Notes: generated by a model not told the origin, from the sequence alone. A stretch of DNA of 64,000 nt from a virus (IMGVR_UViG_3300025137_005045), one strand, 5' to 3'. Positions 3,796 to 47,041 are shown, counted from the first letter of the stretch. A program made the numbers and translations.

Positions 3796-4957
3796 TAAAC
3801 TTTACTTAGAAAATAATAATAATTATAACTTAAAGAATAAGCAAAGTCAAGAGTACAGTGCACCATACGTACGACCGTGTGCATTAGATACATTTTTAAC
3901 CCAGCATCAGCTTGACTACCAGCGTGTTGCCTTTGATGATTGTGATTATAATACATGGTATCCAGTTAACATATATTTCTTTGACTTTGACTGTGACTAC
4001 TTTACTTACTTCGATGTCTTGACCCTAGACAAAATTCGTAACAAGAAACTTAGAGTATTGTTTATCTATAGTGAACCAGACGATCCTTTTGCCATTAACA
4101 AAAGACTGGATGAACTATGTAACCAACATAATATAGATAGACAATCAATATTCTTCATTAGTGGTAATACCGTTGCTAATTCCTTAGACGGAATGGCCTA
4201 TCTACAGTATCACGAATTTCAATTTGAAATACAGAATACTGCAATCCCTGAGCCAACTATATTTGATCGTAAGACTAAAAAATACACTTGTTTAAACCGT
4301 ATTCACAAACAGTATAGAAAAGAGTTTGTTTATAATTTATGGAAAGATGGATTAACAGAAGATGCTTACGTAAGTTATGGTAATGTTTTAAATAAAGATA
4401 CAAAGGATGATTTTGCCGTTATTAATGATAGTTTTAAACATCCTGGCAGTGGACAAAGTCAAAACATTGAGTATGTTACTTCAGAGTTTGAGAGTTTATT
4501 ACCTCTAAGTGCAGATAACCTTGACACAGATCAACACAATGATCATTCTATAAGTGTTGACTACTTATTTTCTAATAGTTATTGGAATATTGTTATGGAA
4601 ACATATCTGGATGCTACCAACGGTGTTTTCCTTACCGAAAAAACATTTAAACCTATAAAGTACGGACAACCTTTTATTATATTAGGAACACCTGGATCAT
4701 TAGAACTTCTCAAAGAACAAGGATATAAAACATATAGTCCCTGGATAGATGAAAGTTATGATCAAGAACAGGATGTACGATTTCGGTGGTATGCCATTAT
4801 GGAAATAGCAAGAAAAATTTCTAATATGTCATTGGAGGATTTGCACAAAGAACATATTGAAAAAACCTCAACAATATTATATAATCAGGCTTGGTTTACT
4901 AGAAATAAACAAGATCAATTAATTAAATGTCTTCAACGGTTAACTGCTCAACAGTAA
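3779..4957 (+). CDS. Hypothetical protein with LTEKTFKP motif, glycosyltransferase-like
   Basis: Long ORF; YWNIVMET...FLTEKTFKPIKYGQPF...IDESYD, paralogous to 10129..11202. The motif loosely recalls the GT10 ENS..Y.TEK signature. Start uncertain (3752 or 3779). Confidence 0.5.
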   Translation: MNISNIKLYLENNNNYNLKNKQSQEYSAPYVRPCALDTFLTQHQLDYQRVAFDDCDYNTWYPVNIYFFDFDCDYFTYFDVLTLDKIRNKKLRVLFIYSEPDDPFAINKRLDELCNQHNIDRQSIFFISGNTVANSLDGMAYLQYHEFQFEIQNTAIPEPTIFDRKTKKYTCLNRIHKQYRKEFVYNLWKDGLTEDAYVSYGNVLNKDTKDDFAVINDSFKHPGSGQSQNIEYVTSEFESLLPLSADNLDTDQHNDHSISVDYLFSNSYWNIVMETYLDATNGVFLTEKTFKPIKYGQPFIILGTPGSLELLKEQGYKTYSPWIDESYDQEQDVRFRWYAIMEIARKISNMSLEDLHKEHIEKTSTILYNQAWFTRNKQDQLIKCLQRLTAQQ

Positions 4958-5348
4958 TATTACACTTATTTAAAAAATCAACTCCTTCCGTACTACGATA
5001 TTCTTGGCTGTAGTAGACCTGCGTAATCCCACTTTGATAAATCATTTTAGCACAACTCAAACAAGGCGAGTGCGTTATGAATATTGCTGAACCATCTCCG
5101 CTTTCACTTGACTTAGCCAGTTTAGCAATTGCATTTGACTCTGCGTGCAGTACTTCTGGTCGACTTTTATTATTCTCATCTTCGCATACGTTATCCCATC
5201 CACTGGGCATACCATTATATCCAATTGAAATAATACGATCGTTCTTAACTATTAAAGCACCAACGTTCAATCTTTTAGCAGTTGAACACTTTGCATAGAC
5301 ATGTGCCGCCCGCATGTGTGCTTGTTTATGTTTGTCTTTTATATTCAT
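4923..5348 (-). CDS. cd: dCMP deaminase
   Basis: Zn-dependent deaminase motifs HAE and PCxxC (HAESNAI...SPCLSCAK), VGALIVK, IGYNG. Confidence 0.93.
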   Translation of the reverse strand: MNIKDKHKQAHMRAAHVYAKCSTAKRLNVGALIVKNDRIISIGYNGMPSGWDNVCEDENNKSRPEVLHAESNAIAKLAKSSESGDGSAIFITHSPCLSCAKMIYQSGITQVYYSQEYRSTEGVDFLNKCNITVEQLTVEDI

Positions 5349-6832
5349 GAACAGACCTTAACTCCGTACTTTTTTTCAAAACGATCAGCATCTGCACGAT
5401 CGTTTACCATAGGTTCACCTTTGATATTAAGGCTGGTATTTAGTAGCATTGGACAACCTGTAAGTACAAACCATTTTTCTAATAGTTGGCGTACTCCGCT
5501 TTTGCAGTCTGCTGGAACTGTTTGTACACGACTAGTTCCGTCCGTGTGTACAACTGCTGGATAAGCATCAGGATTATTTAATCTTGCTACTACTTGCATG
5601 TATGGACTTGTTGTAAATCCTTCCGGCATTGTAAAATAGTCATTGACATACTCTTCTAATATCACAGGAGCAAATGGTCTAAACTTTTGTCTACGTTTAA
5701 TTTCATTTACCAGATCTTTTATTTCTGGACCTCTTGGGTCTGCCAGTAAACTTCTATTACCTAATGCTCTAGGACCAAACTCAGCTCGTCCCGATGCTAC
5801 ACCTACAATTTTTTTAGTCAGTAGTTCGTCTAGTAAAGCATTTACAGGATAGTCGCCGGATATATCAGTTCCTAAGAATGGATGTTGCCAGTTAATTTTT
5901 TTACCGTATGTTAAAGCCGCGGCGCCTAAGCTCGAACCTGCGTCGCCAGGATTAGGCATAATCCAAGTGTTGTCAAAGTATGCACCTAGATGTTCGTTAG
6001 CCGAGCAGTTAAGAGCAACTCCTCCCATATAAACTAAATTTTTACTCCAGTTTAGTCTTGTGGCTTTATCCATTACACTGTGCAATAACACTTCCAACGT
6101 GTATTGTGCTGAAGCGGCAATATTAAATTCTGATAAATCTGTTGCCCAATCTAAACATCCTGCGTGTAAATTATTTCTAAATCGAATTTGTTCTCTGTCT
6201 GATACAAACTCATCAAATACATTATAATCTGGTACACCATATGCGGCCATACCCATTAAAATATATTCATCTTCATTGGGTTTTAATCCCACACGTTGTG
6301 TCATTGCAGAATAAAATAATCCCATTGAGTGAGGATACCCTTGTCTCCATAATTTTTTATATCGTGCATTACCTTTATGATCGTAATCAGCACCCCATAT
6401 AGTTATAGTATCAAACTCTCCAATGGAATCAATGACAACAACCGTTGCTCTATCGTAAGGACTAGTTTGGAATCCTGCGGCCGCATGTGACAAGTGATGT
6501 GGATATGATTTTGTTCGGTAACCTGTTCCTATTAATTTTTTAGCTTTCGGTGGTATTGCTTTGGATAGTACCTGTCTGGTAAACATTCGGTCCCAGTCAA
6601 GACCAGCACCTTGATACAGTTGTCTTAACTGTTTGAGTAGAGGTTTTTCATAGTAGGCTATATCAGAAATACAACCTATATTTGCATCTGCAAAAATTTC
6701 TTCATTGAGAATATGATCGTTTTTTTGTTTGCTATAACGTTCGCTGTGTCCAGCAAAAGTTATGTTACCATCAAGGTCGATGATTGTAATTGATGCGTCG
6801 TGAAATCCTTCAGATATTCCTAAGTAACTCAT
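5345..6832 (-). CDS. Carbamoyltransferase (NodU/CmcH/TobZ family)
   Basis: HDAS, HHLSHAA, GGVALN, EFGPRALGNRS, KRRQKFRPFAP, DGTSRVQTV, LLNTSLN. Confidence 0.93.
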   Translation of the reverse strand: MSYLGISEGFHDASITIIDLDGNITFAGHSERYSKQKNDHILNEEIFADANIGCISDIAYYEKPLLKQLRQLYQGAGLDWDRMFTRQVLSKAIPPKAKKLIGTGYRTKSYPHHLSHAAAGFQTSPYDRATVVVIDSIGEFDTITIWGADYDHKGNARYKKLWRQGYPHSMGLFYSAMTQRVGLKPNEDEYILMGMAAYGVPDYNVFDEFVSDREQIRFRNNLHAGCLDWATDLSEFNIAASAQYTLEVLLHSVMDKATRLNWSKNLVYMGGVALNCSANEHLGAYFDNTWIMPNPGDAGSSLGAAALTYGKKINWQHPFLGTDISGDYPVNALLDELLTKKIVGVASGRAEFGPRALGNRSLLADPRGPEIKDLVNEIKRRQKFRPFAPVILEEYVNDYFTMPEGFTTSPYMQVVARLNNPDAYPAVVHTDGTSRVQTVPADCKSGVRQLLEKWFVLTGCPMLLNTSLNIKGEPMVNDRADADRFEKKYGVKVCS

Positions 6833-6930
6833 TTATATATAAATGGATCTCGTTTTTTAAGCTCTTTCAGCTTTTTTCTATTTTCTATTCTTTTTACGAT
6901 ACGATCGTATATTTTTTTAAACCATGACAT
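6829..6930 (-). CDS. 33-aa basic micropeptide, copy 1 (MSWFKKIYDRIVKRIENRKKLKELKKRDPFIYK)
   Basis: Hand-translated. SD TAAGGTGA 8 nt upstream; stop overlaps the carbamoyltransferase ATG; paralog at 7642..7758. Below the ORF-track cutoff. Confidence 0.8.
   Translation of the reverse strand: MSWFKKIYDRIVKRIENRKKLKELKKRDPFIYK
6836..6881. repeat. 46-bp perfect direct repeat, copy 1
   Basis: TATATAAATGGATCTCGTTTTTTAAGCTCTTTCAGCTTTTTTCTAT, identical at 7664-7709. Confidence 0.95.
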
Positions 6931-6933
6931 ATT

Positions 6934-7641
6934 TTAATTCACCTTATGTTCATTGATAAATGTATAAATTGCTAGGCCACCATTTGAACTGTTAAACATC
7001 GATAAAAAGTTTACCAGATAATTGCCCCAACTTGGTTGGACAGATTGAAATTTTAAATCACTACACATGTTTAGCACTGTCTGTTTGGTAAAACTTAATT
7101 CAAAGGGATTATTTTCTTGATCTTCAAACAATGTAGAACTATTGTAATTAATTTTTTTAATATGCTTTAATATCTTGCCCATTGGATTATATACTGCAAT
7201 CAATAATGTACCGCCTGGCTTTATTAATGATTTTAATTTGTCCAAGGCTTCTTGATATTGTGGGATATGATGTAGCACTCCACAGCATATAACAACATCA
7301 TATTTTTTGCCTAGTTTAACTTTAAGAAAGTCTTCTTTAATCCATTTAATATTTTTTATATTATTTTCTTTAGACATTTTCCTTGCATAGTCTATACTAT
7401 TGCTAAAGTCAACTCCAGTAAATTTACTTTTTGGATATAAGTTAGCGAATGTATTTGATATTAATCCTGTACCGCACCCAATATCCAATACTTCTATGTT
7501 GTTTGTTACAACATTATTAATTTCCTTAAGGTATATATTAATGTCTACACCTTCCTGCTTATAGAATTCTAGGTCATCACTGTCATACCTGCCAGGAAAA
7601 TGCAGATCACTGTAGAAATTCTTTATTTTTTCTGTATCCAT
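6934..7641 (-). CDS. Class I SAM-dependent methyltransferase
   Basis: Motif I VLDIGCGTG, then VDFS, EDFL, YDVVICCGVLHH, LIKPGG. Confidence 0.9.
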   Translation of the reverse strand: MDTEKIKNFYSDLHFPGRYDSDDLEFYKQEGVDINIYLKEINNVVTNNIEVLDIGCGTGLISNTFANLYPKSKFTGVDFSNSIDYARKMSKENNIKNIKWIKEDFLKVKLGKKYDVVICCGVLHHIPQYQEALDKLKSLIKPGGTLLIAVYNPMGKILKHIKKINYNSSTLFEDQENNPFELSFTKQTVLNMCSDLKFQSVQPSWGNYLVNFLSMFNSSNGGLAIYTFINEHKVN

Positions 7642-7758
7642 TTAACTTTTTTTACTTCTTGGGTATATAAATGGATCTCGTTTTTTAAGCTCTTTCAGCT
7701 TTTTTCTATATCGTATTTCTAATTTAATACGATTATATATATTTTTAAACCAATTCAT
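7642..7758 (-). CDS. 38-aa basic micropeptide, copy 2 (MNWFKNIYNRIKLEIRYRKKLKELKKRDPFIYPRSKKS)
   Basis: Hand-translated. SD GGAG 8 nt upstream; stop abuts the methyltransferase ATG. Confidence 0.8.
   Translation of the reverse strand: MNWFKNIYNRIKLEIRYRKKLKELKKRDPFIYPRSKKS
7664..7709. repeat. 46-bp perfect direct repeat, copy 2
   Basis: Identical to 6836-6881. Confidence 0.95.
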
Positions 7759-8854
7759 TTTTATCACTCCAACAATAATTAAATGTGTTACTAACACCGT
7801 CTACTTCTATACTGTATATATCTAGGTGTGTTTCGAGTTGGCGCCAAATATCAAACATATCAACTGTACCAAAACTTCTTTTTAAATCAACTTTTCCTAT
7901 AGGTAAATGTCCAAGACTAAGTTTTGGATCTCGTGGATCCAAGCCGTGTTTAAGTAACCAATTTTCAAACTCCAATTGTTCTCTATTATGCCAAGGATAG
8001 TTATTAGATCTGGTAACATCGTTAGCCCACTCTACATCAAACTCACCTGAGTAATACTGTAAATGTGTAATTTCTTCACAGGTTGCTTCATCTAGGTCAG
8101 GTGCACCTTCATCACGGAAAACTTCCATTAATGTCTTACCTATTTGTGTCCAGTGCATATAAACATACCCAATCCGCCTATCATATCCGTTAGATATAAA
8201 TCCTTGTCTATGTTCCTCAGACAGATGGTATCTTTTACGCTTATCAAATGTAGTAATTTGACTTGGTCGTATCCACTCCGGTGCAACACGAGCCTTGCGT
8301 TGACTTAATATTAAACTTTCAAGTTCGTGACAACTATGATTTAACGATCCAATTGCCTGTTTAATAGAAGTGGGTGCTAATTGATGATACTGACTTGGTT
8401 TTTCTATAGTACCCTGTAAGCGTTCAAAATGATTATGTAATTTATTTAATATAGCATGCTTTGGCTGTAGCCCAATATACAGATGTCTGTTATTAATCTC
8501 TGATGATGTTACTGTTCCTTCTATCTGATAGGTGGCTGGAAATCTTACAGTGTTTGGATGAAACCATTCTTCTATTAAATAGTCAGTGAGACCTAATTTA
8601 GTAAAATCATATCTATTAATAATTTCTATATTTTTGTTTAATTCATCGCATAGATATTCTAGTGTTCTTGGACTGTTTGGAAAGCCTAAAAAACAAAACT
8701 CTTTCTGAAGTTTTAAATTATTAGATAATGTTTCTTTAAGTGCTATTATCCAATCTTTAGCCAACTGAGTATCATTGGGAACAATATAATAATCTAGTGT
8801 ATCCTCTTTATCCAATGGATTACGCAGTGTTACTTTAACTTCCAATTGACTCAT
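7745..8854 (-). CDS. Hypothetical protein, possibly metal-binding
   Basis: Long ORF in the coupled operon. Likely start ATG 8854 (MSQLEV; track gives 8881). His/Glu motifs LHNHFE, NHSCHELE, YMHW. Confidence 0.7.
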   Translation of the reverse strand: MSQLEVKVTLRNPLDKEDTLDYYIVPNDTQLAKDWIIALKETLSNNLKLQKEFCFLGFPNSPRTLEYLCDELNKNIEIINRYDFTKLGLTDYLIEEWFHPNTVRFPATYQIEGTVTSSEINNRHLYIGLQPKHAILNKLHNHFERLQGTIEKPSQYHQLAPTSIKQAIGSLNHSCHELESLILSQRKARVAPEWIRPSQITTFDKRKRYHLSEEHRQGFISNGYDRRIGYVYMHWTQIGKTLMEVFRDEGAPDLDEATCEEITHLQYYSGEFDVEWANDVTRSNNYPWHNREQLEFENWLLKHGLDPRDPKLSLGHLPIGKVDLKRSFGTVDMFDIWRQLETHLDIYSIEVDGVSNTFNYCWSDKNELV

Positions 8855-10142
8855 ACCAGTGTAATGCCTCCGGGCGTTCACTTAAAATGTCAGCAAGGGT
8901 GTATTTGTCCTTACGTATAAGTTCTAATTGTAACACACGACGCTTACCTTTTGCAAGACTTTCTTGGTAAGTATCTGGCCATTGTTCTTCAAAAGTTGGC
9001 CGTGTTTTAAGTTGCACCAATATGTCACGCATAGCACCGTTGCTAGTAACAATTAGTTCATCTAACCAAGGATGCAATATTGATTTTGGTAATGCTAGCG
9101 GACTAAAAATAATATCAGGAGTAAAACTAAAGATTACTTTGGCTAGTATGTCTACACCTTTTTCTTCTGCGAGCGTTTGGATGTTTTCGACTTCGAAGAG
9201 TCCTGGGAGCGTGAGCGTGAAGTCGATACGTAACTGGCGGCTATGTATTTTACTCTCAACTCCCTGATCGAAGTTTTCAAGCCACGAACCATACTTGAGA
9301 CCTGTCCTAATGTACTCTCCAATTTTTCCTGTTCCGTCAAGCGACGCACAGATTTGCCAGTCCCGTAACCTAGAAAGTATATCCCGATACAAATTAATAC
9401 CGCGATAATCACATCTGCTAAGATTTGTATTATATCTTGCGTAAACATTTTTACCGTCTCCTAATTCAACTATCCGTTTCATGTACTTCCAATGTTGCTC
9501 GTACATTAACGGTTCCCCTCCTACCCAATAAACCTCTTCTATGCGGTGGTCTTCCACCGCTTGGGCAAATTCCTGCTCTACTACAGAGTCCTGGAACTTC
9601 TCAATTTCTTTCTTAACATCGCGTTTCATCCAGTTGTTTTTAGGATTTGACCAGTTAATCATATTGTGCTTGCGTTGTTCTGTTTCCCATGCACTTGATA
9701 ACATATCGCCACATGTGCGGCATTTGAAGTTACATAAATTACTAAAACGATAATCCCAACTTACAGGTTCCATCGTTGTATGGCCTGTTTCGTCTGTTGT
9801 TTCCCATAACTTTGTATAGTATTTACTACTGAATAGTCTATCAAAATATGTACGGTAAACATCAGTATTCAACAGCTTATCGTTGCATACGGCACATTCC
9901 GCTAAGGTTTCTCCAGCCATCATGCGTTTACGAACTGATTTCATATGGTCACTGTTCCAGTGATCGTGCAATGTGATTGGCTGATATTCTCCCGTACCTT
10001 CTTTGGTATCTATATACTGTTCAAACGATTGTGCATCCTCACGACTAGCACAGCACATACGTCTTTCAGTCTGTGGCGATAGATAAGTATGTGTCCACGG
10101 AGCCATACACAATGTTTCTGGTTTGTTTTTAGGTTCTTTCAT
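8835..10142 (-). CDS. Radical SAM protein with N-terminal SPASM/twitch-like Cys domain
   Basis: CxxxCxxC (CNFKCRTC), GGEP, YNTN, ASLDG; N-terminal CMAPW..MCCAS..CAVC. Confidence 0.9.
   Translation of the reverse strand: MKEPKNKPETLCMAPWTHTYLSPQTERRMCCASREDAQSFEQYIDTKEGTGEYQPITLHDHWNSDHMKSVRKRMMAGETLAECAVCNDKLLNTDVYRTYFDRLFSSKYYTKLWETTDETGHTTMEPVSWDYRFSNLCNFKCRTCGDMLSSAWETEQRKHNMINWSNPKNNWMKRDVKKEIEKFQDSVVEQEFAQAVEDHRIEEVYWVGGEPLMYEQHWKYMKRIVELGDGKNVYARYNTNLSRCDYRGINLYRDILSRLRDWQICASLDGTGKIGEYIRTGLKYGSWLENFDQGVESKIHSRQLRIDFTLTLPGLFEVENIQTLAEEKGVDILAKVIFSFTPDIIFSPLALPKSILHPWLDELIVTSNGAMRDILVQLKTRPTFEEQWPDTYQESLAKGKRRVLQLELIRKDKYTLADILSERPEALHWYESIGS
9152..9448 (-). CDS. Candidate overprinted gene (+1 frame in radical SAM): N-terminal TM helix, coiled-coil-like middle, Ser/Lys/Arg-rich tail
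   Basis: SD AGGAG 9 nt before ATG; host gene uses rare codons (ACG, CTC, TCG, CGG, CGC) across the overlap. Confidence 0.55.
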   Translation of the reverse strand: MFTQDIIQILADVIIAVLICIGIYFLGYGTGKSVRRLTEQEKLESTLGQVSSMVRGLKTSIRELRVKYIAASYVSTSRSRSQDSSKSKTSKRSQKKKV

Positions 10143-11202
10143 ACCACTCTTTTATTTTCTTAAGCTGTAAAATATTATTTTTTACACAATTTTTATTAAA
10201 CTCACCACTAATAATCATCTCTAAATTATATTCTGCACTGTTGCGAGCTTGAGTAAAGTCATCAATATTTTTCAGTTCATCTAATAATTTAAATAAGTTT
10301 TCTAGTCTTGTAAAATCTTCTTGTATGCTGTCATACCCTAGATCAAAACCATAATCAAACTTCATTCCTAATTTTGTTAAAAATGATAATGTATTAGCTT
10401 GTCCTACAGGTAGAAATGGTTGTTTAGCTATTAAGGGTTTCCACGTTTTCTCTGTCAGATAAGGAGTAGTATATATACCTTTGTTGTTAAACTCTGTATT
10501 GTATATACTTTCATTTGTTAGATTAAATTCACAATTTAGATAGGCTGGGTTGCTCCAATGACCGTTGTTTATTGGCAAATTTATATCTTCGTCGAATGAA
10601 TCTATAGTGATTATTCCTATATTATTAAATGCTGGACTAGAAAGATATTTTTCGACTATGTCTGAAATATAATATCCCTCCTGTTTCCAATAATGTTGTT
10701 CCTCACTATCAGACCAAGCATGCCAACTTAATAAACTATCCGGATATTCGTTTATTAGGTATGCTGTGATAGCCGACTTATGAAATTCTTCTCTAAAAGA
10801 TAGAGAGCTGAATAGACGAGTCTTTGGGTGTTGTTTCTGACAATGTCCATACATCTCATTCATATGTTCGAGCTGATATCCATATGATATCCATTGAGCA
10901 TACGTTACATTTTCGGGCCATATGTTGCTTGGACTACCATCAGACAATAGTAAAAAATTTATGTCAGAATATTTCTTGAAGAATTCTAACAAGTCAAAAT
11001 AATTATAATACTCAGTGTGAAAACTAATGATTACATTTTTATAGTGTTGTGGAACTTTAACTGTTGTAATATTTTGAATATTAAGTAAAAAATAAACAGA
11101 GTCTAAATCAAGTTCAATTAACGGTTGATATAATGTATGTTTAATTATTTCTTTTGTTCCAATTATGTTTTGAGGAATGTAATCATCAATTTTCATACCC
11201 AA
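10129..11202 (-). CDS. Hypothetical protein with LTEKTWKP motif, glycosyltransferase-like
   Basis: FNLTNES...YLTEKTWKPLIAKQPF...DLGYD; paralog of 3779..4957. Confidence 0.5.
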   Translation of the reverse strand: MGMKIDDYIPQNIIGTKEIIKHTLYQPLIELDLDSVYFLLNIQNITTVKVPQHYKNVIISFHTEYYNYFDLLEFFKKYSDINFLLLSDGSPSNIWPENVTYAQWISYGYQLEHMNEMYGHCQKQHPKTRLFSSLSFREEFHKSAITAYLINEYPDSLLSWHAWSDSEEQHYWKQEGYYISDIVEKYLSSPAFNNIGIITIDSFDEDINLPINNGHWSNPAYLNCEFNLTNESIYNTEFNNKGIYTTPYLTEKTWKPLIAKQPFLPVGQANTLSFLTKLGMKFDYGFDLGYDSIQEDFTRLENLFKLLDELKNIDDFTQARNSAEYNLEMIISGEFNKNCVKNNILQLKKIKEWYERT

Positions 11203-12769: not shown

Positions 12770-14021
12770 TTAACTCCGGTATTGCTTCTGATATGTTTTC
12801 GTTTCTAATTTTATCTAACTCTTGCATACGTTCCCAAAACTTAGGAAGTTGATCTTGATTGTTGCCTTCTAAAAAGTTAAGTGCTGATTCAAATCCCACA
12901 GTTGCTCTATTCAATTTATCTAACGGACGTAACCATTCTAAGTGTTCTTCAAACTTAGCCTTAATTTTATCTTTATATTCTTGTGGTGCAATATCAATAC
13001 GCAACCATAATGGGTCTTGTAATACGTTAACGTTTAAGTCTTGAGGTTTAATGTATCCTTTGTTAACCCACTCACGATGGAAATCAGGTAAGTGCAACGC
13101 ATTTTGTATTGATAGTGTAGGACTAATATAGAAGTCAACATCAGGACATATTTCCATCATTAGACGTCTGTTTTCTTCTATCTCTGCCCACTTAGTACCT
13201 TTTCTAATATACTCAGCACGTGGACCCATTGCGTCAAGACTAGCACCCACTGCAACACTATCAAACTTCTTCCAATAGTCAAACACTAACCGGTCTTTAA
13301 GTTTTGTTTTAGAGAAGTTTGTGTTGTATACTAATCGTACATCAAAGCGATTACGCTTTTCTAGTTCTTCTAGGATAACATAATGCTCATCCATCATTAA
13401 AGGCTCACCGCCAGCGAAATATATTTGTTCTACGTAATCTAAATGTTCGTACAACTGTTCCATAATATCTGTTTCGTGTCGACCTGCCCAGAACAGAGCC
13501 TTGTTCTGTTTGTTATGGCCTTCACCGGTTAACACCTTTTGATCTTTATACCAACTTGAACTAAAGATATGTCCACATGAACGACATGATAAATTACATA
13601 AGTTACTAAAGCGTATGTCCCAATATGTCATTTCAAAAGGAGGATCTATGTCTGTGCCTTTTTTAATATTGTGTCCGTGATGTTTGTTAGCACTCTTGCG
13701 TCCTGAAAAGAAACCAGCATCCTCTTGTTCATAACATCTAGTACACGCTGAATTCTCACGTTCATTTAACATGTCTTCACGTAGTTGTTTCATCTTGGCG
13801 CCTGACCATATTTCTTTCATTGGTTGCTGTTGACAGTTACCAACTTTCTCAGGCATTTCAGCATGACAACAAGGATAAGCATCACCAGTTGGGTATGCGT
13901 GTAAATGTATCCAAGGATACATACAAAATGTTTTTGATTCTGTTAATAAAAACTTTTCACGATCGTTCAATTGATCTAGACTAATCTTTACTGGTTCACT
14001 TGAATTGTAATTATAAGCCAT
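12747..14021 (-). CDS. Radical SAM protein with N-terminal SPASM/twitch-like domain
   Basis: CNLSCRSC, FAGGEP, YNTN, ASLD; FCMYPW..PCCHA..CTRCY. Confidence 0.9.
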   Translation of the reverse strand: MAYNYNSSEPVKISLDQLNDREKFLLTESKTFCMYPWIHLHAYPTGDAYPCCHAEMPEKVGNCQQQPMKEIWSGAKMKQLREDMLNERENSACTRCYEQEDAGFFSGRKSANKHHGHNIKKGTDIDPPFEMTYWDIRFSNLCNLSCRSCGHIFSSSWYKDQKVLTGEGHNKQNKALFWAGRHETDIMEQLYEHLDYVEQIYFAGGEPLMMDEHYVILEELEKRNRFDVRLVYNTNFSKTKLKDRLVFDYWKKFDSVAVGASLDAMGPRAEYIRKGTKWAEIEENRRLMMEICPDVDFYISPTLSIQNALHLPDFHREWVNKGYIKPQDLNVNVLQDPLWLRIDIAPQEYKDKIKAKFEEHLEWLRPLDKLNRATVGFESALNFLEGNNQDQLPKFWERMQELDKIRNENISEAIPELNEIRINN

Positions 14022-15366
14022 TATACCAATCCTCTAATTCAGGAAACGTTTCAGTAAAGTTCTTTCCCCTACGTTCGTCATACTGTGTATAAAATTGTTT
14101 AAAGTCATTTAGTAGTTTAGGCATTTCAAATGATTCTGAATGCGGCCTTTCTACTATATTTAAGTAATCAACTAATCTTTCTATATGATTTATTTCAAAC
14201 TCGTGTAGTCTATCACCATAGTTTGCTTTAAATATGTTTAATCTATTTGCTTGTGCTTGTCTAAACTGCTTATCCAATACCAATGCTGATTGAAAGCTAG
14301 GAAAGCGTAGAATATTTAGTGTAAAATTAATTGCGTCTTTTCCGTATTCTTGTTTAAGATAGACTATCTGTTTCAACAAATAAGGTAGTCTAATCAAGCA
14401 CAGAGCGTTCACTGTACACATTACATGTAATCCACGTAGCTTTTTACTATCTAACAAATAACGAACGTTTGCAAGCCATTGACCGTAATCTAATCCATCA
14501 CGTATATACTCGGCATGATTATAAGTTGCTTCGTTTGATGTGTATATGTCTAGTTCAACATCCTGTGCGGCTTCCAACAATCTATCTATTTTCTTTTGAT
14601 CTAATGCTAGATTACTGTTAACAGCTATACGTGTTTTTGACTTTCCTCTATTAGTTTTAAACCAATCAAACAGTTGCCATGTATAACCTGACATCAAAGG
14701 CTCGCCACCTGTTATCCTTAATTCAGTTAAGGTCTTGTGAAGATCGGACTCCCACCACTTGAAGAATGCCTCAACATAAGGATTATCATCACGGATAGTA
14801 AAAAGCTGACTGCTATCGTGACTATGAGTAAAGTGATTGCGGCCGTCACTAACCAACTTGGTATAAGCACCATTTTGCTTAATGTCCCTAGCCCAACTAC
14901 TGCTAAAAGCGGGATTGCAATAAGTACAAGCCAACTGGCAAGTCCTATCAAAAGCAATTTCCAAAGTTCTAAGGTTAACATCTTGTGTCCAAGGCTTAGT
15001 GTGTGCTTCATTTAATTCCTCATCTGTGTATATTCTAGTTTTATCTACACGGTCTGATATTTTGTCAGTACCCATGTCCTCAATTTTCCAACAGTACTCA
15101 CAGCCTTTAGGTCTCTCACCTACCTGCATCTGTCTACGCTGTTCTTTCTTTTCAACAGTATTATGTAACGCACTTGGATTTGTTTTAATTAGTTCACGAT
15201 CAATCTGATGCGGTAAGGGATGATGACAACTGGTAGTTTGTCCGCTACCTAGCCATATGGTAGCATTATACCATTTAGCACCACAGAAGCTATCAGATTT
15301 AATGTCGATAACTCTACGTTTATATGTTAAGTCAGATTCATTAGGCTTTTTTGGCATGTTGTTCAC
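14011..15366 (-). CDS. Radical SAM protein with N-terminal SPASM/twitch-like domain
   Basis: CQLACTYC, ITGGEP, VNSN; FCGAKW..SCHHP..CEYCW. Confidence 0.9.
   Translation of the reverse strand: MNNMPKKPNESDLTYKRRVIDIKSDSFCGAKWYNATIWLGSGQTTSCHHPLPHQIDRELIKTNPSALHNTVEKKEQRRQMQVGERPKGCEYCWKIEDMGTDKISDRVDKTRIYTDEELNEAHTKPWTQDVNLRTLEIAFDRTCQLACTYCNPAFSSSWARDIKQNGAYTKLVSDGRNHFTHSHDSSQLFTIRDDNPYVEAFFKWWESDLHKTLTELRITGGEPLMSGYTWQLFDWFKTNRGKSKTRIAVNSNLALDQKKIDRLLEAAQDVELDIYTSNEATYNHAEYIRDGLDYGQWLANVRYLLDSKKLRGLHVMCTVNALCLIRLPYLLKQIVYLKQEYGKDAINFTLNILRFPSFQSALVLDKQFRQAQANRLNIFKANYGDRLHEFEINHIERLVDYLNIVERPHSESFEMPKLLNDFKQFYTQYDERRGKNFTETFPELEDWYNGL
14727..15011 (-). CDS. Candidate overprinted 94-aa multi-pass membrane protein (holin-like), +1 frame in radical SAM
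   Basis: SD GAGG 6 nt before ATG; about 60 nearly uninterrupted hydrophobic residues; only 8 of 94 host codons in the overlap end in A, far fewer than in the flanks. Confidence 0.6.
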   Translation of the reverse strand: MKHTLSLGHKMLTLELWKLLLIGLASWLVLIAIPLLAVVGLGTLSKMVLIPSWLVTAAITLLIVTIAVSFLLSVMIILMLRHSSSGGSPIFTRP

Positions 15367-16771
15367 ACTCCTTCCACCATGTTTCCATCTCAGGAAATAT
15401 CTTTAGAAAGTTTGTACCTCTTCTCTTATCATGTTCTGTAAAAAATTTATAAAAGTCTGCTTTCTGTTGGGCAAGGTATTTAGTGTCTAGTTTTTGACCG
15501 TTACGCATCCAAGCGATATCTCTATCAAGCCGTTGCATTTCATAATCTTTAAATCCTTTAAAACGTGTTTCTTCTGTTTCTCTCCACTTCAACATCCAAG
15601 CCCATAATAGTTCAAGTTGATCACAATAGCTTTCTGGAAGTATCTGCATGCTTTGCCATTCGGGTGTACGCAATAGAGGAGTATCAAACCATACACGTTG
15701 GTATGTATTTGAGTATACATGTCTAAGTCCGTTAATACCTGCTAGTATACTGCCAAATGATGTTACATTTAGATTATTCATTGTGATAATAAATGTTATG
15801 CTTGAACGTTCTGGTACTTCTGTCAAGAATTGATTAACACGTTCCCATAACAACTCAAAGTTCAATCCATCACGTATGTATTCTGCTTTATCTCCAAAAG
15901 CATCAACTGACACATACTGCATGAAATGTTCTACATTGTCATCTCGACATATCATCTTGACATAATCTAAATACTTGACCCATAGTTTTTCACTTACTGA
16001 AAAGTTTGATGTTGTTGATAGATGTAAGTCAGATTTAGGATTGGCTAACACATGATCAAATACCTTATACGTATTCTTATCCATCATTGGTTCGCCACCT
16101 GTCATACGGAAGTGTTTAAGCTCAGGATATAAGTCAGGCCACCATTCCCAAAATGCTTCTACATAAGGATTATGTTCTCTAAAAGGTATAGGCTTACGAC
16201 TGCCTTGAAAGTATTTAGGATCATTATGAGGAGTTGATGTAGGCCACGCACCATGTTTGTCAGTTTCTTTTTCCCAAGCAGTTGAATACTGTGGTGAACA
16301 ATAACTACAGCGTAGATTACAGTTATGATTAAAGTTTACTTCTACATAGCTAGGTATAACATCTTGGTCCCAAGGTGCATCTACTATTTCTTTAAAACTT
16401 TCAGCGGCCCATGGCTCGCCTGAACGATAATGCCTATCACTTAGCTGACCATTATCTTCTGCATTCCAACAGTATGAACACTCATCAGGACGCTTTCCCT
16501 CTAACATCTGCTTACGTGCTTGTTTCTTTTCAGCAGTGTTGTGTAACGCACCTGGATGAAATGTCAATGGCTTAACATCTATATCATGTAAGGGAGGATG
16601 ATAGCATGAGTTAGTTTTACCTGTTGTAAGGTGTAAGCTGACCTGTTTCCATTTAGCTAGGCACATGCTAGGACTTACTGAGTCTAGTTGAGCTTTGGCC
16701 AACTCTGCATCACTTAAGAACTTTGACTTAAAGTCTACTCCTGTTTCATCACCTTTGTTTTGTTTGTTCAT
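15341..16771 (-). CDS. Radical SAM protein with N-terminal SPASM/twitch-like domain
   Basis: CNLRCSYC, MTGGEP, TTSN, VSVD; MCLAKW..SCYHP..CSYCW. Confidence 0.9.
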   Translation of the reverse strand: MNKQNKGDETGVDFKSKFLSDAELAKAQLDSVSPSMCLAKWKQVSLHLTTGKTNSCYHPPLHDIDVKPLTFHPGALHNTAEKKQARKQMLEGKRPDECSYCWNAEDNGQLSDRHYRSGEPWAAESFKEIVDAPWDQDVIPSYVEVNFNHNCNLRCSYCSPQYSTAWEKETDKHGAWPTSTPHNDPKYFQGSRKPIPFREHNPYVEAFWEWWPDLYPELKHFRMTGGEPMMDKNTYKVFDHVLANPKSDLHLSTTSNFSVSEKLWVKYLDYVKMICRDDNVEHFMQYVSVDAFGDKAEYIRDGLNFELLWERVNQFLTEVPERSSITFIITMNNLNVTSFGSILAGINGLRHVYSNTYQRVWFDTPLLRTPEWQSMQILPESYCDQLELLWAWMLKWRETEETRFKGFKDYEMQRLDRDIAWMRNGQKLDTKYLAQQKADFYKFFTEHDKRRGTNFLKIFPEMETWWKECEQHAKKA

Positions 16772-17447
16772 TAATTATTTTTGCCCATTCTTTATTTGCT
16801 TCATTATTTGGATGAAGTCCATCTTCTCCATAAAGATTTTTTTCTCTCGCTAATTCAAATATACCATCTTTTCCTTCATTGAGAAAAATCCAGTTTTTAA
16901 AGTCTATTTTATCTACTAGGTTGTCAAGATCTAATCCTCTAACACTTGGTAGGGTAATACCATTTTCGATGTAAGACTCATTCCAATAATTCATAAAACT
17001 CATAAATCTATATTTTTGATTTCGTGCTTTTAAAAACTCTTGTAACTTTATCATATTAAGTAAACTATCAAAGACCATTCCTCTAAGATCGCTAAATGCT
17101 ATCTTAGGTTTAGCAATATCTATCATCGGACTATCAGGACTATCACCAACATTACAGTGGCCATATCTTATTCCTAAATTATTTTTACTCTTAAAATACC
17201 AAAAATCGTTCCATGTTGGTTCGTTAATTATTTCATCAATCCTGGTTAACCCACTCCACATTACTAACACCATATCATAATTATTATAGAGCAATTCGGT
17301 TATGGTTGCATCACATATCCATTTATTACCTGCACCATGCTGGGCTATATTTTTATTAGGAAAATTTACATAATCTGCCCAACTTGGGTCTTCACTTAGT
17401 GCAGTATAACTGCATCCATTTACTAGTAGTGACTTATTTGTAGACAT
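16749..17447 (-). CDS. SGNH/GDSL-like hydrolase or acyltransferase fold protein
   Basis: Block I NGCSYT, block II-like AQHGAGN, block V DGLHPN. Confidence 0.7.
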   Translation of the reverse strand: MSTNKSLLVNGCSYTALSEDPSWADYVNFPNKNIAQHGAGNKWICDATITELLYNNYDMVLVMWSGLTRIDEIINEPTWNDFWYFKSKNNLGIRYGHCNVGDSPDSPMIDIAKPKIAFSDLRGMVFDSLLNMIKLQEFLKARNQKYRFMSFMNYWNESYIENGITLPSVRGLDLDNLVDKIDFKNWIFLNEGKDGIFELAREKNLYGEDGLHPNNEANKEWAKIINEQTKQR

Positions 17448-18342
17448 CTATCTCTCTTACCATAGGTCCTTGATTACGCCAATTTGATCTATAGTGTCGT
17501 TTAAAAAATTTACTTTGCTCCGCATCCATCTCAACAATGTCTAGATCTAATCTGCCTAAGGCTTTGGCGTATTCGGTCAACAGTGGCTCCGGATTTTGAT
17601 CTTTAATTGTTTCCCACTTCTTTCCCAAGTTGTCAAACCATTGTACTTCTCTATAATTCCAATCGCTTAACATGGTCATGTGTGTTCCTAGTCTAGCACC
17701 TAACATTGCCCATTCTCCATTTTCAACATCTCTGCCTACATTATGCCATATAGCAAGATTATCTAAGTTACGACCATGTGCTTTTTGTTTAAAATCACTT
17801 GTGCTAGGCTTAGTGCCACGGTCTAAACACATCTTAACTCCTTCACGAAATCCTGCACGCCATGCTTGGAAAGGTGTTGCATTTGGATATGTAGTTGAAT
17901 AACAATCATTCATTGCCCAATACAAGGGATCAAAACAAAACTCCACAGCAGTATCATCTGCTCCGTCACTGTGTTCGTGTGTTTTCATATTGTATATGAA
18001 CTCTTTTGTCCAACAACTTAATCCACCGTTACCGTACATGAGTCCGTTAATATTATTACGAGCTCTCCAACGGAATACTGCCTTTTCATAATCTTCGTCT
18101 TTAAGATCTAAAGTTAAATCAAAGAAGTCTATATTAGGTAAGTTATCACCATCTATTAGAATGAAACGATCTGTACCGCTTACATCAGCCGCGGCTTTAT
18201 GTGCGGCATCACTACCTTCCACTCCATCTACACGTTTTGCCCACGGTACCATGTTTTTAATTTGCACCCAGAACTCTTCTTTTTTGGGCTCATCATAACT
18301 GAGGTAAACTACATCTAAATCTGCTATGTCGATCTTAGTCAT
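17434..18342 (-). CDS. Glycosyltransferase-like (GT-A-like) protein
   Basis: LDVVYLSY..., FILIDGDN (DxD), AWRAGFREGVKM; paralog of 2494..3795. Confidence 0.6.
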   Translation of the reverse strand: MTKIDIADLDVVYLSYDEPKKEEFWVQIKNMVPWAKRVDGVEGSDAAHKAAADVSGTDRFILIDGDNLPNIDFFDLTLDLKDEDYEKAVFRWRARNNINGLMYGNGGLSCWTKEFIYNMKTHEHSDGADDTAVEFCFDPLYWAMNDCYSTTYPNATPFQAWRAGFREGVKMCLDRGTKPSTSDFKQKAHGRNLDNLAIWHNVGRDVENGEWAMLGARLGTHMTMLSDWNYREVQWFDNLGKKWETIKDQNPEPLLTEYAKALGRLDLDIVEMDAEQSKFFKRHYRSNWRNQGPMVREIDVYK

Positions 18343-18661
18343 AATATTTTAACTTCCAATGTTGTCCCTTGCCAATAATAGTAATGTCATCTGACAGTGT
18401 TTCTGTACCTTCTGTACTGGGTACTAATTTACGGAATTGAGTTGTTCTATTTGGATTATATAGTTGTCCATCTTTAACAATAACATCCTGTCTAAATTGA
18501 GCGTAAACTTCTTGCTCTACTACTATATACTTATTCCCTGGGAGATCTTGGGTAGTATAGGTAATTATGGAGCCGTCCTCACGGTAATAAACACGATACT
18601 CACGATCTGTATTTGTTTGTACACCGTTGAACTTATCTTTAATTTTCCAAAAGTTGCTCAT
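18335..18661 (-). CDS. Hypothetical protein
   Basis: 108-aa ORF overlapping both neighbours in the operon. Confidence 0.7.
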   Translation of the reverse strand: MSNFWKIKDKFNGVQTNTDREYRVYYREDGSIITYTTQDLPGNKYIVVEQEVYAQFRQDVIVKDGQLYNPNRTTQFRKLVPSTEGTETLSDDITIIGKGQHWKLKYYD

Positions 18662-19427
18662 AATGTTCCTCTAATTTTTCTGCAAAACTTTTGATATAAT
18701 AGTGTGTAGGCATTTGTTGTTGTATGGTATTAATTCTTAATCCTCGATCACTAAGTTCCCATACCAGTTCTTTTGTCCAGTCTTCTCCATCACACCAATT
18801 AATTTTACCTTTCATGTGTACAAATTTAGGATATGATGACGGTATAAGAAAATTCTCTCGACCCAAAAGTGTTATAGCAATAGCGTACACAGTGTCAGTG
18901 TCAGGATCTGTTTGTGTCCATCCTTTTAATTTAACTTGATCCCAATTTTCAAATAGTTGTCTACATGTAGTAAAAAATCTGGCGGCCAATTGACTGCGTC
19001 TCCAGTAGGTTACTGCATTATATACATCAGGTAAGTTATTAGCATCAAGATGTTTTCGATAATCTCTTTGTGTTGCTCGATGACCATAAAAATTACGAGC
19101 TCCTTCAGCTACAAAAACATCTTTCTTTTCCATCATAGGCCACCAATGATCTATACTACCATTTAAGATCATATCAGCTTCTAGTTTAAGTGTTTGCCTA
19201 AAAGGACTTGCTTCTAGTATTTGCCAATCATTCTTTAATCCGCCTTGATCACCATGTGGTAATGCTATTTCATAATCAAATATTGCATCTCGACAGTCAC
19301 CCACCACTGCTATCTTAGCACTAGGCATAAAGTATTTGATTGACTTTGCTAATGCACGGGCACATTGGTGGTACTGCGTACCTTGTGCTAGTATTAAATA
19401 TCCTCGTTCTTGTTTAACTGATTGCAC
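18639..19427 (-). CDS. Glycosyltransferase-like protein (GT-A, GT8-like)
   Basis: GYLILA, SPFRQTLKLEADM (ExD variant), YNAVTYW, DTVYAIA, FVHMKG. Confidence 0.6.
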   Translation of the reverse strand: MQSVKQERGYLILAQGTQYHQCARALAKSIKYFMPSAKIAVVGDCRDAIFDYEIALPHGDQGGLKNDWQILEASPFRQTLKLEADMILNGSIDHWWPMMEKKDVFVAEGARNFYGHRATQRDYRKHLDANNLPDVYNAVTYWRRSQLAARFFTTCRQLFENWDQVKLKGWTQTDPDTDTVYAIAITLLGRENFLIPSSYPKFVHMKGKINWCDGEDWTKELVWELSDRGLRINTIQQQMPTHYYIKSFAEKLEEHYEQLLEN

Positions 19428-20166
19428 TAATTGCCTCCATTGATTTCTTGTGCATTACGTGTATGTCTAATCCTTTAATTTGACTTCTTACTGTCTTATT
19501 TCTTTTGTCGTAACTAAGATGTATAACATCATCTTCAACAGATACTTTAACATCAGTTGATGCAGTTGCTAAAGGCCAAGGTATTGTACGTGTAGTACTC
19601 AGTACATGTCCGCCCACTATACCTAGTGCTATTGAAAAAGCATAATCATTTCTAAAAGGTTTATGTGCAAATTTGTATGTTTCAGCAAAATGACTGTAGT
19701 TTTGCCTAATAGTTTTTACTACATCAAATATTACTTTATTCTGGCTTTCTCTGTTAAAATAAAAAACTGTAGCCCAGCTTTGTGGAAACTTTAATTGTCC
19801 GAAGTCTGTTTGTCCTCTAAAAGCATTTCTGCCAGTGACATCACTGACTATTTGATGTATAAGAAAACTTTGTGGCATGTCAAATAGTGTCAGCAGTATA
19901 TCTGAGTTTACTATATAATCAGCATCAATCACTATAGTTTCATCATATGGGCTGTCATTCCACGCATTTGCTCGACTAGCATTTAGCCATTGAGATCTAA
20001 CACCATCAAAGGTTCTGGTACCACCTGCTGATGCATGTTCTGACTTACTAATAATTGTGGTTTCTAACCCAAGGAATCGTTTGATACGTTTAGCATTCCA
20101 TCTGGCCATTGCCTCATAGTCTATCTCGCCATTATTAAAGGCATAGATCAATACTCCACGATTCAT
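19414..20166 (-). CDS. Glycosyltransferase-like protein (GT-A), paralog of the preceding gene
   Basis: GVLIYA, SPYDETIVIDADY (DxD), WATVFYF, RNDYAFSIA, IHVMHK. Confidence 0.6.
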   Translation of the reverse strand: MNRGVLIYAFNNGEIDYEAMARWNAKRIKRFLGLETTIISKSEHASAGGTRTFDGVRSQWLNASRANAWNDSPYDETIVIDADYIVNSDILLTLFDMPQSFLIHQIVSDVTGRNAFRGQTDFGQLKFPQSWATVFYFNRESQNKVIFDVVKTIRQNYSHFAETYKFAHKPFRNDYAFSIALGIVGGHVLSTTRTIPWPLATASTDVKVSVEDDVIHLSYDKRNKTVRSQIKGLDIHVMHKKSMEAISAIS

Positions 20167-20465
20167 CTTTGTTGACTTATTTCTGTTAATTCAACTAACC
20201 AAGCATTCATTTGTTCTTGCCAACGTTGTTTAGTTTCGTTTAATAGATCAACACGATTGACACTGGTAGGATTGCCGTATAGATCCAATATTACTGGATT
20301 GTCGATATCTTCAATGCTGGTAAGCAAGGTAATTAGTGTAGGGTCTGCACGCCACATACCTCCGCAAGAAGCAAATATCAATTTGGCTTCATACTTTTCT
20401 CGAAGAGTTTGTTTGGCCGCTTCGTGATCAAAGCGTTGTTTAATGTTATCTGATAGAATAGTCAT
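20163..20465 (-). CDS. Hypothetical protein, first gene of the modification operon
   Basis: 100-aa ORF; late-type motif 16 nt upstream. Confidence 0.7.
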   Translation of the reverse strand: MTILSDNIKQRFDHEAAKQTLREKYEAKLIFASCGGMWRADPTLITLLTSIEDIDNPVILDLYGNPTSVNRVDLLNETKQRWQEQMNAWLVELTEISQQR

Positions 20466-20480
20466 AATAGAAGTATAACA

Positions 20481-20488
20481 TACTTATA
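20481..20488 (-). promoter_or_regulatory. T4-like late promoter variant TATAAGTA
   Basis: In the short intergenic gap upstream of 20465; one mismatch from T4 TATAAATA; the same variant lies upstream of 55721. Confidence 0.55.
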
Positions 20489-20546
20489 GCCAAAATAAAA
20501 GAGCTTTGAAAAAAGCCCTTTTATCAATTCTATCAAACTATCTAGT

Positions 20547-22958: not shown

Positions 22959-22966
22959 TATTTATC
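22959..22966 (-). promoter_or_regulatory. T4-like late promoter GATAAATA
   Basis: Intergenic, about 30 nt upstream of 22929. Confidence 0.6.
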
Positions 22967-47013: not shown

Positions 47014-47041
47014 TTGACAGGGGCCTTATAGACTGTATAAT
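47014..47041 (+). promoter_or_regulatory. sigma70-type early promoter TTGACA-N16-TATAAT
   Basis: Perfect -35 and -10 hexamers upstream of the gp55-like gene (SD TAAGGAG follows). Confidence 0.8.

Follow-up and report, generated by a model that had tools for sequence, protein, structure and literature searches.

A phage operon beside the tail-fibre genes, with a strictly conserved core of five radical SAM enzymes, as a candidate glycan-tailoring island

The window analysed here is a stretch of 64,000 nucleotides (nt) of DNA from an uncultured virus (IMGVR_UViG_3300025137_005045), and the subject of this report is an operon of 18 genes on its minus strand, next to the tail-fibre genes, which encodes five radical S-adenosylmethionine (SAM) enzymes. 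Taken together with an adjoining block of four genes (x1 to x4), the operon is interpreted, with a probability of roughly 0.5, as a cytoplasmic pathway in which an unusual sugar or short glycan is built, edited and passed on to an acceptor, probably a virion fibre. The two components of this interpretation carry separate weights: that the genes form a glycan pathway is probable, and, given such a pathway, the odds that the acceptor belongs to the virion are about even. Direct observation extends to the gene families, the folds, the intact catalytic motifs and the conservation of gene order, from which we infer a sugar substrate for the radical SAM enzymes, the sequence of the steps, and the acceptor. 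The locus as a whole is rated, on its sequence, a phage glycan-tailoring island with a strictly conserved core of five radical SAM genes.

In the proposed pathway x4 and x3 would make a nucleoside-diphosphate (NDP)-amino-deoxy-sugar, and each of the five radical SAM enzymes would catalyse a radical reaction of its own, acting either on the nucleotide sugar or on the growing glycan, for which oxidation, epimerisation, dehydration and C-C rearrangement are the candidates. The carbamoyltransferase would contribute a carbamoyl group, and in this phage a methyltransferase would add a methyl group and an SGNH protein acyl groups. The sugars would be attached by g02 and g03 (GT8-like), g05 (GT-A), x2, and perhaps the proteins of a family defined by a TEK motif.

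The operon and its conservation in related phages

Open reading frame (ORF) calls and a check of the junctions bear out the original prediction of 18 coupled minus-strand genes running from 20465 to 4923; neighbouring genes overlap by 4-26 nt, abut, or are separated by 3 nt, once two micro-ORFs (7642-7758 and 6829-6930) are included. The gene families that had been proposed from the sequence are recovered in part: the five radical SAM enzymes, the methyltransferase, the carbamoyltransferase, the dCMP deaminase and the GT-A protein g05 stand, whereas g02 and g03 are linked to glycosyltransferases by weak profiles, and the SGNH and TEK proteins are recognised by motifs only. The members of the operon, in the order of transcription, are as follows.

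20163..20465, minus: g01, 100 residues, conserved first gene, present in 48 of 63 related loci
19414..20166, minus: g02, 250 residues, GT8/glycogenin-like GT-A candidate with an IDADY motif (phrog_1903, weak profile)
18639..19427, minus: g03, 262 residues, paralog-type GT8-like GT-A candidate with a LEAD motif (phrog_1903, E 7e-10)
18335..18661, minus: g04, 108 residues, variable member, present in 24 of 63 loci, no family match
17434..18342, minus: g05, 302 residues, predicted GT-A-fold glycosyltransferase with a helical C-terminal domain (AlphaFold2 model, Foldseek)
16749..17447, minus: g06, 232 residues, SGNH-like candidate (acyl esterase/transferase), variable, present in 4 of 63 loci
15341..16771, minus: g07, radical SAM 1 (NF033640, 319 bits; orthologs 60-85% identical)
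14011..15366, minus: g08, radical SAM 2 (NF033640, 292 bits; orthologs 59-80% identical)
12747..14021, minus: g09, radical SAM 3 (NF033640, 391 bits; orthologs 45-84% identical)
11186..12769, minus: g10, radical SAM 4, extended at its N terminus by about 100 additional residues (NF033640, 337 bits; orthologs 40-76% identical)
10129..11202, minus: g11, 357 residues, TEK motif family, possible glycosyltransferase, variable member (motif 'ET...TEK..KP...PF..G')
8835..10142, minus: g12, radical SAM 5 (NF033640, 285 bits; orthologs 64-81% identical)
7745..8854, minus: g13, 369 residues, predicted cyclophilin-like barrel with an inserted helical bundle (AlphaFold2 model)
7642..7758, minus: micropeptide copy 1, 38 residues, whose stop ends at 7642 and abuts the methyltransferase ATG at 7641
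6934..7641, minus: g15, class I SAM methyltransferase, an insertion specific to this phage (Pfam Methyltransf_31, E 1e-24)
6829..6930, minus: micropeptide copy 2, 33 residues, the canonical form, whose stop overlaps the carbamoyltransferase ATG
5345..6832, minus: g17, NodU/CmcH-type carbamoyltransferase (Pfam Carbam_trans_N and Carbam_trans_C)
4923..5348, minus: g18, dCMP deaminase, ATGA-coupled, not a conserved member (Pfam, E 1e-22)

The epimerase, aminotransferase and glycosyltransferase-like genes that were expected beside the operon are also found there, and the fourth gene of the block, x1, is a paralog of g11.

482-1438, plus: x4, SDR dehydratase/epimerase of NDP-hexose type (Pfam)
1365-2513, plus: x3, DegT/PseC-type aminotransferase (Pfam)
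2494-3795, minus: x2, two-domain protein with a g05-like glycosyltransferase domain (sequence comparison)
3752-4957, plus: x1, TEK-family protein, paralog of g11 (shared motif)

Related loci were retrieved with an alignment of four radical SAM sequences, and the comparison set consists of 58 IMG/VR loci, three ENA contigs, three phage contigs binned into bacterial metagenome-assembled genomes (MAGs), and the Ralstonia phage RsoM2USA. Presence was counted over 63 related loci, in most of which the fetched flank ends before the carbamoyltransferase end of the operon. The order of the genes across these loci is fixed: the fibre genes y3, y2 and y1 are followed by g01, g02, g03, sometimes g04, and g05, then by a variable slot, the radical SAM genes g07, g08, g09 and g10, a second variable slot, g12 and g13, the micropeptide, and finally the carbamoyltransferase. 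In relatives the variable slots are filled by extra radical SAM genes, TEK-family genes or SGNH genes. In a complete relative of 357 kb (G001) the same operon is present, and x1, x2, x3 and x4 come after it. The expectation of conserved co-occurrence is therefore borne out for a core that keeps its order beside the fibre genes but fails for the peripheral members, since g11 is present in only 2 of the 63 loci and the SGNH gene in only 4, and no homologue of the methyltransferase or of the dCMP deaminase was found in the flanks of the 63 loci, including those that reach the carbamoyltransferase.

Contigs bearing the core genes reach 300-420 kb. Two contigs of a 'Haliscomenobacter' MAG (NZ_JBBAKG01; L006 and L007, 183 and 148 kb) carry the operon in full synteny, as two variants within one MAG, and a 'Legionellales' MAG contig (L008) likewise carries it in synteny; all three are almost certainly jumbo-phage contigs that were mis-binned with bacteria. 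Megablast of the operon against 50,697 cultured-phage records gave no match, and a search of these records for g05 found it only in RsoM2USA, the sole cultured carrier found, where virion-protein ORFs are closely followed, in the downstream direction, by g02, g03, g05 (ORF350), one radical SAM gene and a second g05-like gene.

Five N-twitch radical SAM enzymes

By profile score g07, g08, g09, g10 and g12 are all members of NCBIfam NF033640, a family of twitch domain-containing radical SAM proteins (N_Twi_rSAM) for which the curated cut-off is 170 bits. Membership in this family, in which the twitch domain is N-terminal, accounts for the unusual domain order seen with Pfam, which in g09 places SPASM (residues 33-97) before Radical_SAM (residues 137-288). 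A different origin for the N-terminal SPASM domain, as the C-terminal domain of the preceding gene joined on by a frameshift, was considered and rejected because the same order defines NF033640 and occurs in RsoM2USA; in that phage only two places match, and ORF349 (RsoM2USA_349), to which g07 is 34% identical, aligns across 98% of g07. In an alignment of ten radical SAM sequences C142, C146, C149, C52, C93, C96 and the GGEP motif are invariant and C33 is present in 90%, and all five enzymes of the window retain CxxxCxxC, GGEP and the set of four N-terminal cysteines for an auxiliary 4Fe-4S cluster. What the window shares with NF033640 is thus an auxiliary-cluster domain that precedes the radical SAM core, with every cluster cysteine intact; the family itself is a bioinformatic definition, and the window differs from it in presenting five distinct orthogroups in fixed order within a phage operon.

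Each of the five enzymes has a one-to-one ortholog across the related loci, with 45-85% identity (40-76% for g10), while the paralogs are mutually only 20-31% identical. Because the orthologs are far closer than the paralogs, the five copies are judged old and individually maintained, which is as expected if each of them catalyses a different step.

A profile search of the PDB gave as nearest solved cores the cyclopropyl synthase TvgB (8VPO, E 4e-10), viperin (2e-7) and MoaA (2e-4), with further matches to the BtrN twitch domain (2e-3) and BlsE (0.02). Several of these (viperin, MoaA, the BtrN twitch domain and BlsE) are nucleotide or sugar enzymes, which supports a glycan pathway. All five proteins share with the window enzymes a radical SAM core and a twitch-type auxiliary cluster, but their domain order is reversed and the likeness is confined to the core, so that the substrate is not transferable. 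The radical SAM sequences by themselves cannot choose between a peptide and a nucleotide-sugar substrate; for us the choice is decided by the gene neighbourhood, which tips it towards sugar because the neighbours comprise three to five transferases, a sugar dehydratase, an aminotransferase and a carbamoyltransferase.

Enzymes of this kind also occur elsewhere. Tandem arrays of five to nine N-twitch paralogs were observed on Bdellovibrionales chromosomes and a Parcubacteria contig (L053, L057-L059, L061, L071); some bacterial arrays adjoin g05-like transferases (L073, L077) or carbamoyltransferases (L040, L046, L050), and the majority of array neighbours have no Pfam family. The cultured jumbo Vibrio phage K566 (L001, 161.5-168.3 kb) has four N-twitch genes but not g05; the genes around them are unannotated, and a PagP-like gene is nearby.

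Glycosyltransferase-like genes

The most conserved gene of the operon outside the radical SAM set is g05, for which family searches by sequence gave no match, and which is nevertheless predicted from its structural model to fold as a GT-A glycosyltransferase. The AlphaFold2 model, built on an alignment of 49 sequences (predicted local distance difference test, pLDDT, 95), has an N-terminal GT-A domain and a helical C-terminal domain. Foldseek matches it to TarP, PBCV-1 A64R and SunS at E of about 1e-4, with probabilities of 0.98-1.0 for TarP, A64R and K4CP, and structural comparison (VIA) gives Z of 8-9.5 and root-mean-square deviations of 3.1-3.9 over about 140 aligned residues. The DxD motif (D64 and D66, in IDGDN) is at least 90% conserved in the 49 sequences. 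The protein has at least 8000 significant homologs, of which 1217 are representatives at 50% identity. In proteins of about 740 residues (P0169, P0180, P0186 and about 15 further representatives) a g05-type domain is fused behind a GT1-family domain (GT-B, rhamnosyl/CalG-like), and in other proteins it occurs as a tandem pair; these fusions and duplications tie the domain to glycan assembly.

The products of g02 and g03, each present in 61 of the 63 loci, look GT8/glycogenin-like. Neither had an above-threshold Pfam match; a joint profile of the two searched against the PDB gave 19 matches, all of them glycogenins and all weak (E 0.03-0.5), and language-model (Atlas) features of g03 lead to the PF03407 and PF01501 clusters (nucleotide-diphospho-sugar transferase, GT8). 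A g02 homolog is present in RsoM2USA. For g11 and x1, a GT10-like fucosyltransferase was considered, and searches of Pfam and PDB profiles found no match; these two paralogs have only their shared motif ET...TEK..KP..PF..G, which is conserved in 25 homologs.

Modifying enzymes and other members

The carbamoyltransferase g17 scores 129 and 169 bits with Pfam Carbam_trans_N and Carbam_trans_C against cut-offs of 24 and 27 (E 1e-49 and 3e-37), so that both domains of the NodU/CmcH/TobZ O-carbamoyltransferases are shared well above cut-off. It reaches only 149 bits against a cut-off of 1000 with the NodU equivalog NF041651, which places it in the same superfamily but not as a NodU ortholog, and it differs further in being preceded by a conserved, coupled 33-residue micropeptide. 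Orthologs with 49-63% identity are present in every locus whose flank extends this far. The dCMP deaminase gene lies about 125 kb from the operon in G001 and about 3 kb downstream of it in another relative (G003).

The blocks I, II and V of the SGNH-like candidate g06 (GxS, GxGN, DxxHP) are conserved in seven homologs, and the Pfam GDSL match has an E of only 0.093, below cut-off. The g13 gene, which always directly follows g12 and has 2567 homologs, is modelled with a pLDDT of 86; structural comparison (VIA) gives Z of 7-8.8 to cyclophilins and the Atlas rows are Pro_isomerase and Cyclophil_like2, while Foldseek against the PDB returned nothing at E of 0.001 or below and the PDB profile search nothing useful. 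No Pfam or PHROG match was found for g01.

A conserved micropeptide of 33 residues

The two small ORFs of the operon are copies of a 33-residue protein, MNWxKNLYNRIKLEIRYRKKLKELRKRDPFIYK, which forms a family of 895 clusters and in which RKKLKELxKRDPFIY is invariant across 21 aligned members. In canonical copies the stop codon overlaps the ATG of the following gene. The gene that follows is the carbamoyltransferase in most loci, directly so in three relatives (L006, L007 and L134), and by position the micropeptide is upstream of the carbamoyltransferase in six further loci; other copies precede the methyltransferase (copy 1 of the window), a gene of 240 residues (L008), or a g05-like glycosyltransferase (L052). 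Coordinates of copies in relatives are L006:14399-14500, L052:~480-575 and L134:~7000-7115. A copy was also seen on a 'Gammaproteobacteria MED685' MAG contig, ahead of a g05-like transferase.

The micropeptide has no match in Pfam, and in particular none to the DUF5989/SxtK-type small protein, which we take to be a carbamoyltransferase partner and whose link to the micropeptide is unconfirmed. A predicted complex of carbamoyltransferase and micropeptide scored 0.22 against a mark of 0.32 and counts neither way. The micropeptide may be an accessory enzyme subunit, a coupled regulatory leader, or a substrate.

Promoters and the timing of expression

Two features occupy the interval between the fibre genes and the operon.

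20481..20488, minus: TATAAGTA box, candidate promoter of late type, differing at one base from the ATAAATA motif of this phage, 15 nt before the g01 ATG
20489..20546, minus: intergenic hairpin with a T-run, resembling a terminator, separating the operon from the last fibre gene (fold energy and shuffles)

The hairpin, which adjoins the stop of the last fibre gene at 20547, folds with -20.7 kcal/mol (z -3.5), and 0 of 200 shuffles folded equally well; in relatives hairpins of unrelated sequence occupy the same intergenic place. Since it separates the fibre genes from the operon, the operon is a transcription unit of its own, and the description of the operon as attached to the tail genes is not supported in that wording.

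The heptamer ATAAATA is three-fold depleted in the window (10 copies against 31.5 expected), and eight or nine of the copies are found on the coding strand a short way upstream of structural genes (for example at 22959, 40471, 40882, 46965, 54119, 55733 and 57829); judged by this distribution it is a clean late-promoter signature of the phage. The box of the operon, ATAAGTA, has one mismatch to the heptamer. The TATAAGTA sequence is present in 2 copies against 6.4 expected, that is, not above chance, and the closest relatives have at the same place CATAAGTA, GATAAGTA, GGTAAATA or TATAAATA; the box in these relatives is the same or the perfect one. The sole perfect sigma-70 promoter of the window heads a DNA-metabolism cluster (47014-47041), and x2 is preceded by a sigma-70-type box with 11 of 12 positions (3850-3822).

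In 38 distinct upstream regions of relatives a sigma-70-type promoter, defined by at least 10 of 12 positions, a threshold reached by only 3.6% of random 120-nt windows, was found in 19 (two with a perfect TTGACA-17-TATAAT), the late-type heptamer in 15, and both in none. The same operon changes its promoter class between subclades (upstream of g01 orthologs, L085-L141). With one mismatch in the box, and with promoters of sigma-70 type in half of the relatives, the label 'late-type' is weakly based: late expression is plausible for this phage but is not a property of the system. A search for sequencing runs found no RNA run, and two DNA runs contain only 0.20-0.26 of the sampled words.

The acceptor and competing explanations

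The 22 proteins encoded by the operon and the adjacent block contain no 19-residue hydrophobic stretch that reaches 1.6, and no membrane segment is predicted in any of them. The locus therefore lacks a lipid-carrier transferase, flippase or polymerase, and this all-soluble character favours a cytoplasmic acceptor over a self-contained pathway for an envelope glycan. Given this apparent solubility, and given that the operon is invariably found behind the tail-fibre genes, a virion fibre protein would be the likeliest acceptor. The arrangement in RsoM2USA supports this choice: its g02-g03-g05-radical SAM module is located just downstream of ORF361, ORF359 and ORF356, whose products were identified in virions by mass spectrometry (PMC8504454).

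Several observations weigh against the fibre-decoration pathway. The single best match of the radical SAM cores is a peptide-modifying enzyme, TvgB, and no NF033640 enzyme with a characterised reaction was found. Bacterial members of the family occur in mixed contexts, including a cluster with acyl carrier protein, ketosynthase and acyl-ligase genes in Paenibacillus, and when the neighbours of bacterial members (80 and 112 of them) were tallied by Pfam family, no partner recurred consistently beyond further radical SAM genes and a few GT2 genes. Adjacency to the fibre genes could be synteny inherited within one phage clade instead of a functional link. The sigma-70-type promoters of half of the relatives suggest early expression, which suits an action directed at the host at least equally well, and the TEK-family and SGNH assignments rest on motifs alone.

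The action on the host that early expression would suit is a remodelling of the host surface, in which the enzymes alter the nucleotide-sugar pool or the lipopolysaccharide or capsule sugars of the host during infection; it could block superinfection by rival phages or change the adsorption of progeny to cell debris. We regard this as unlikely. It gains from the early-type promoters of the operon in relatives, from the sigma-70 box ahead of x2, and from the occurrence of N-twitch arrays on bacterial chromosomes, and a study of pelagimyophages and cyanomyophages read the GT8 genes and radical SAM cassettes beside the tail fibres, in a 'host recognition cluster', as host O-chain modification, at annotation level only (Zaragoza-Solas et al. 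2020, PMC7029224). It is harder to reconcile with the late-type promoter of the operon in the window itself and with the absence of membrane segments from all 22 proteins, which leaves the locus without an exporter as well as without the lipid-carrier enzymes, and for an auxiliary metabolic gene one would not expect a strictly ordered cassette, about 15 kb long, immediately behind the fibre genes.

That the radical SAM enzymes modify peptide or protein is a distinctly improbable explanation, in which the micropeptide would be the precursor of a glycopeptide or of a product like the peptides that are made on ribosomes and modified after translation (RiPPs), or virion proteins would be cross-linked or epimerised in addition to receiving sugars. 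TvgB, which heads the solved matches, is a RiPP cyclopropyl synthase, SPASM/twitch enzymes frequently act on peptides, and the micropeptide is extremely conserved; glycogenin-like enzymes, moreover, glycosylate tyrosine, and the micropeptide ends in ...FIYK, a connection that is our own. Pfam and NCBIfam scans of the radical SAM proteins, however, show no peptide-recognition domain of the RRE/PqqD type, and the micropeptide tracks whichever gene comes next and not the radical SAM genes, from most of which it is separated by lying at the far end of the operon. No such peptide was found in the fetched 25-kb radical SAM regions of RsoM2USA and Vibrio phage K566, both of which have NF033640-family enzymes.

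Only a slim chance is allowed to a diffusible small molecule, aminoglycoside-like or nucleoside-like, that would be produced during infection. An aminotransferase, a dehydratase, radical SAM enzymes, a carbamoyltransferase of the TobZ/NodU kind, a methyltransferase and glycosyltransferases are all present and every protein is predicted to be soluble, and such a set resembles the gene clusters of aminoglycoside and nucleoside antibiotics; but there is no exporter, resistance gene or scaffold-forming gene (cyclitol synthase, non-ribosomal peptide synthetase or polyketide synthase) in the locus, which has at least four transferase-like genes at a fixed position beside the fibre genes.

Hypermodification of DNA bases, by which the phage DNA would be glycosylated and further decorated, is very improbable: the last gene of the operon here is a dCMP deaminase, and both GT-A enzymes and carbamoyl groups feature in systems of DNA modification, known or predicted, but the deaminase is not a conserved member, and G001 has no dCMP/dUMP hydroxymethylase (ThyA-family paralog), its single ThyA-family gene scoring as a genuine thymidylate synthase (NF002497, 348 bits, cut-off 327) beside a dihydrofolate reductase gene, and no TGT/DpdA homolog, in a search that was positive in control genomes. 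A Tet/JBP search of G001 found no match and is uninformative, as the control was also unmatched. The original preference for sugar building and decoration over classic DNA hypermodification of the hydroxymethyl-pyrimidine kind is thus supported; the choice among virion, host surface and small molecule, which the original prediction left open, is unproven.

Two stronger forms of the fibre-decoration pathway may be stated. In the first, the radical edits by the five enzymes would yield an undescribed, hyper-tailored carbamoylated sugar on the tail fibres of aquatic jumbo phages that form an abundant clade, a conjunction that we consider distinctly improbable. In the second and boldest version, the glycogenin-like transferases would begin the glycan on the invariant ...RDPFIYK peptide, which would serve them as a tyrosine primer or carrier.

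Setting in the phage genome

The genes of the window include T4-type baseplate, portal and fibre genes. The portal is about 50% identical to those of jumbo myoviruses such as PA5oct, Phosso and GAP32, and a protein identical to g13 is encoded on contigs of up to 293 kb, from which the window is assigned, on sequence, to the genome of a jumbo phage, aquatic and uncultured, that belongs to the Rak2/PA5oct/RsoM2USA-related group. A single ORF of 4461 residues, upstream of the fibre genes, occupies 23663-37048 (minus strand); relatives carry versions of 4672 residues with weak FG-GAP matches, and RsoM2USA has a virion protein of more than 288 kDa at the matching place. The C-terminal part of the fibre protein y2 (21571-22929, minus strand) contains SAQYADLAERFE, a putative instance of the signature by which the self-cleaving, intramolecular chaperone domain is recognised in the tail fibres and spikes of phages.

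Relation to known systems and significance

The closest mechanistic analogue at the level of fold is the capsid glycan system of the chlorovirus PBCV-1, in which soluble GT-A enzymes are encoded by the virus, as in the window, and whose A64R protein is a fold-level match to g05 (Foldseek E 2e-4, Z 8 over 144 residues). Mycobacteriophages also glycosylate their virions, with glycosylation genes that adjoin structural genes. To our knowledge neither system has radical SAM enzymes or a carbamoyltransferase, and in the window the acceptor is a predicted one. The closest published description is the pelagimyophage cluster introduced above, with which the window shares GT8-like genes and radical SAM cassettes in the tail-fibre region of a marine T4-like phage; that cluster is a hypervariable mix, whereas the window belongs to a jumbo phage of about 300 kb whose core is strictly ordered.

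Aquatic metagenomes contain the core genes in great abundance, yet the radical SAM family, g05, g13 and the micropeptide are without an assigned function, and the existence of a minimal module (ORF348-353) in the Ralstonia phage RsoM2USA makes the question directly testable. If the operon does decorate the fibres, it would represent a new phage surface chemistry with relevance to host recognition and to escape from recognition by hosts or grazers in the ocean, and it would provide the first reaction for a large catalogued family of radical SAM enzymes which in Bdellovibrionales and other bacteria occurs as arrays of as many as nine genes.

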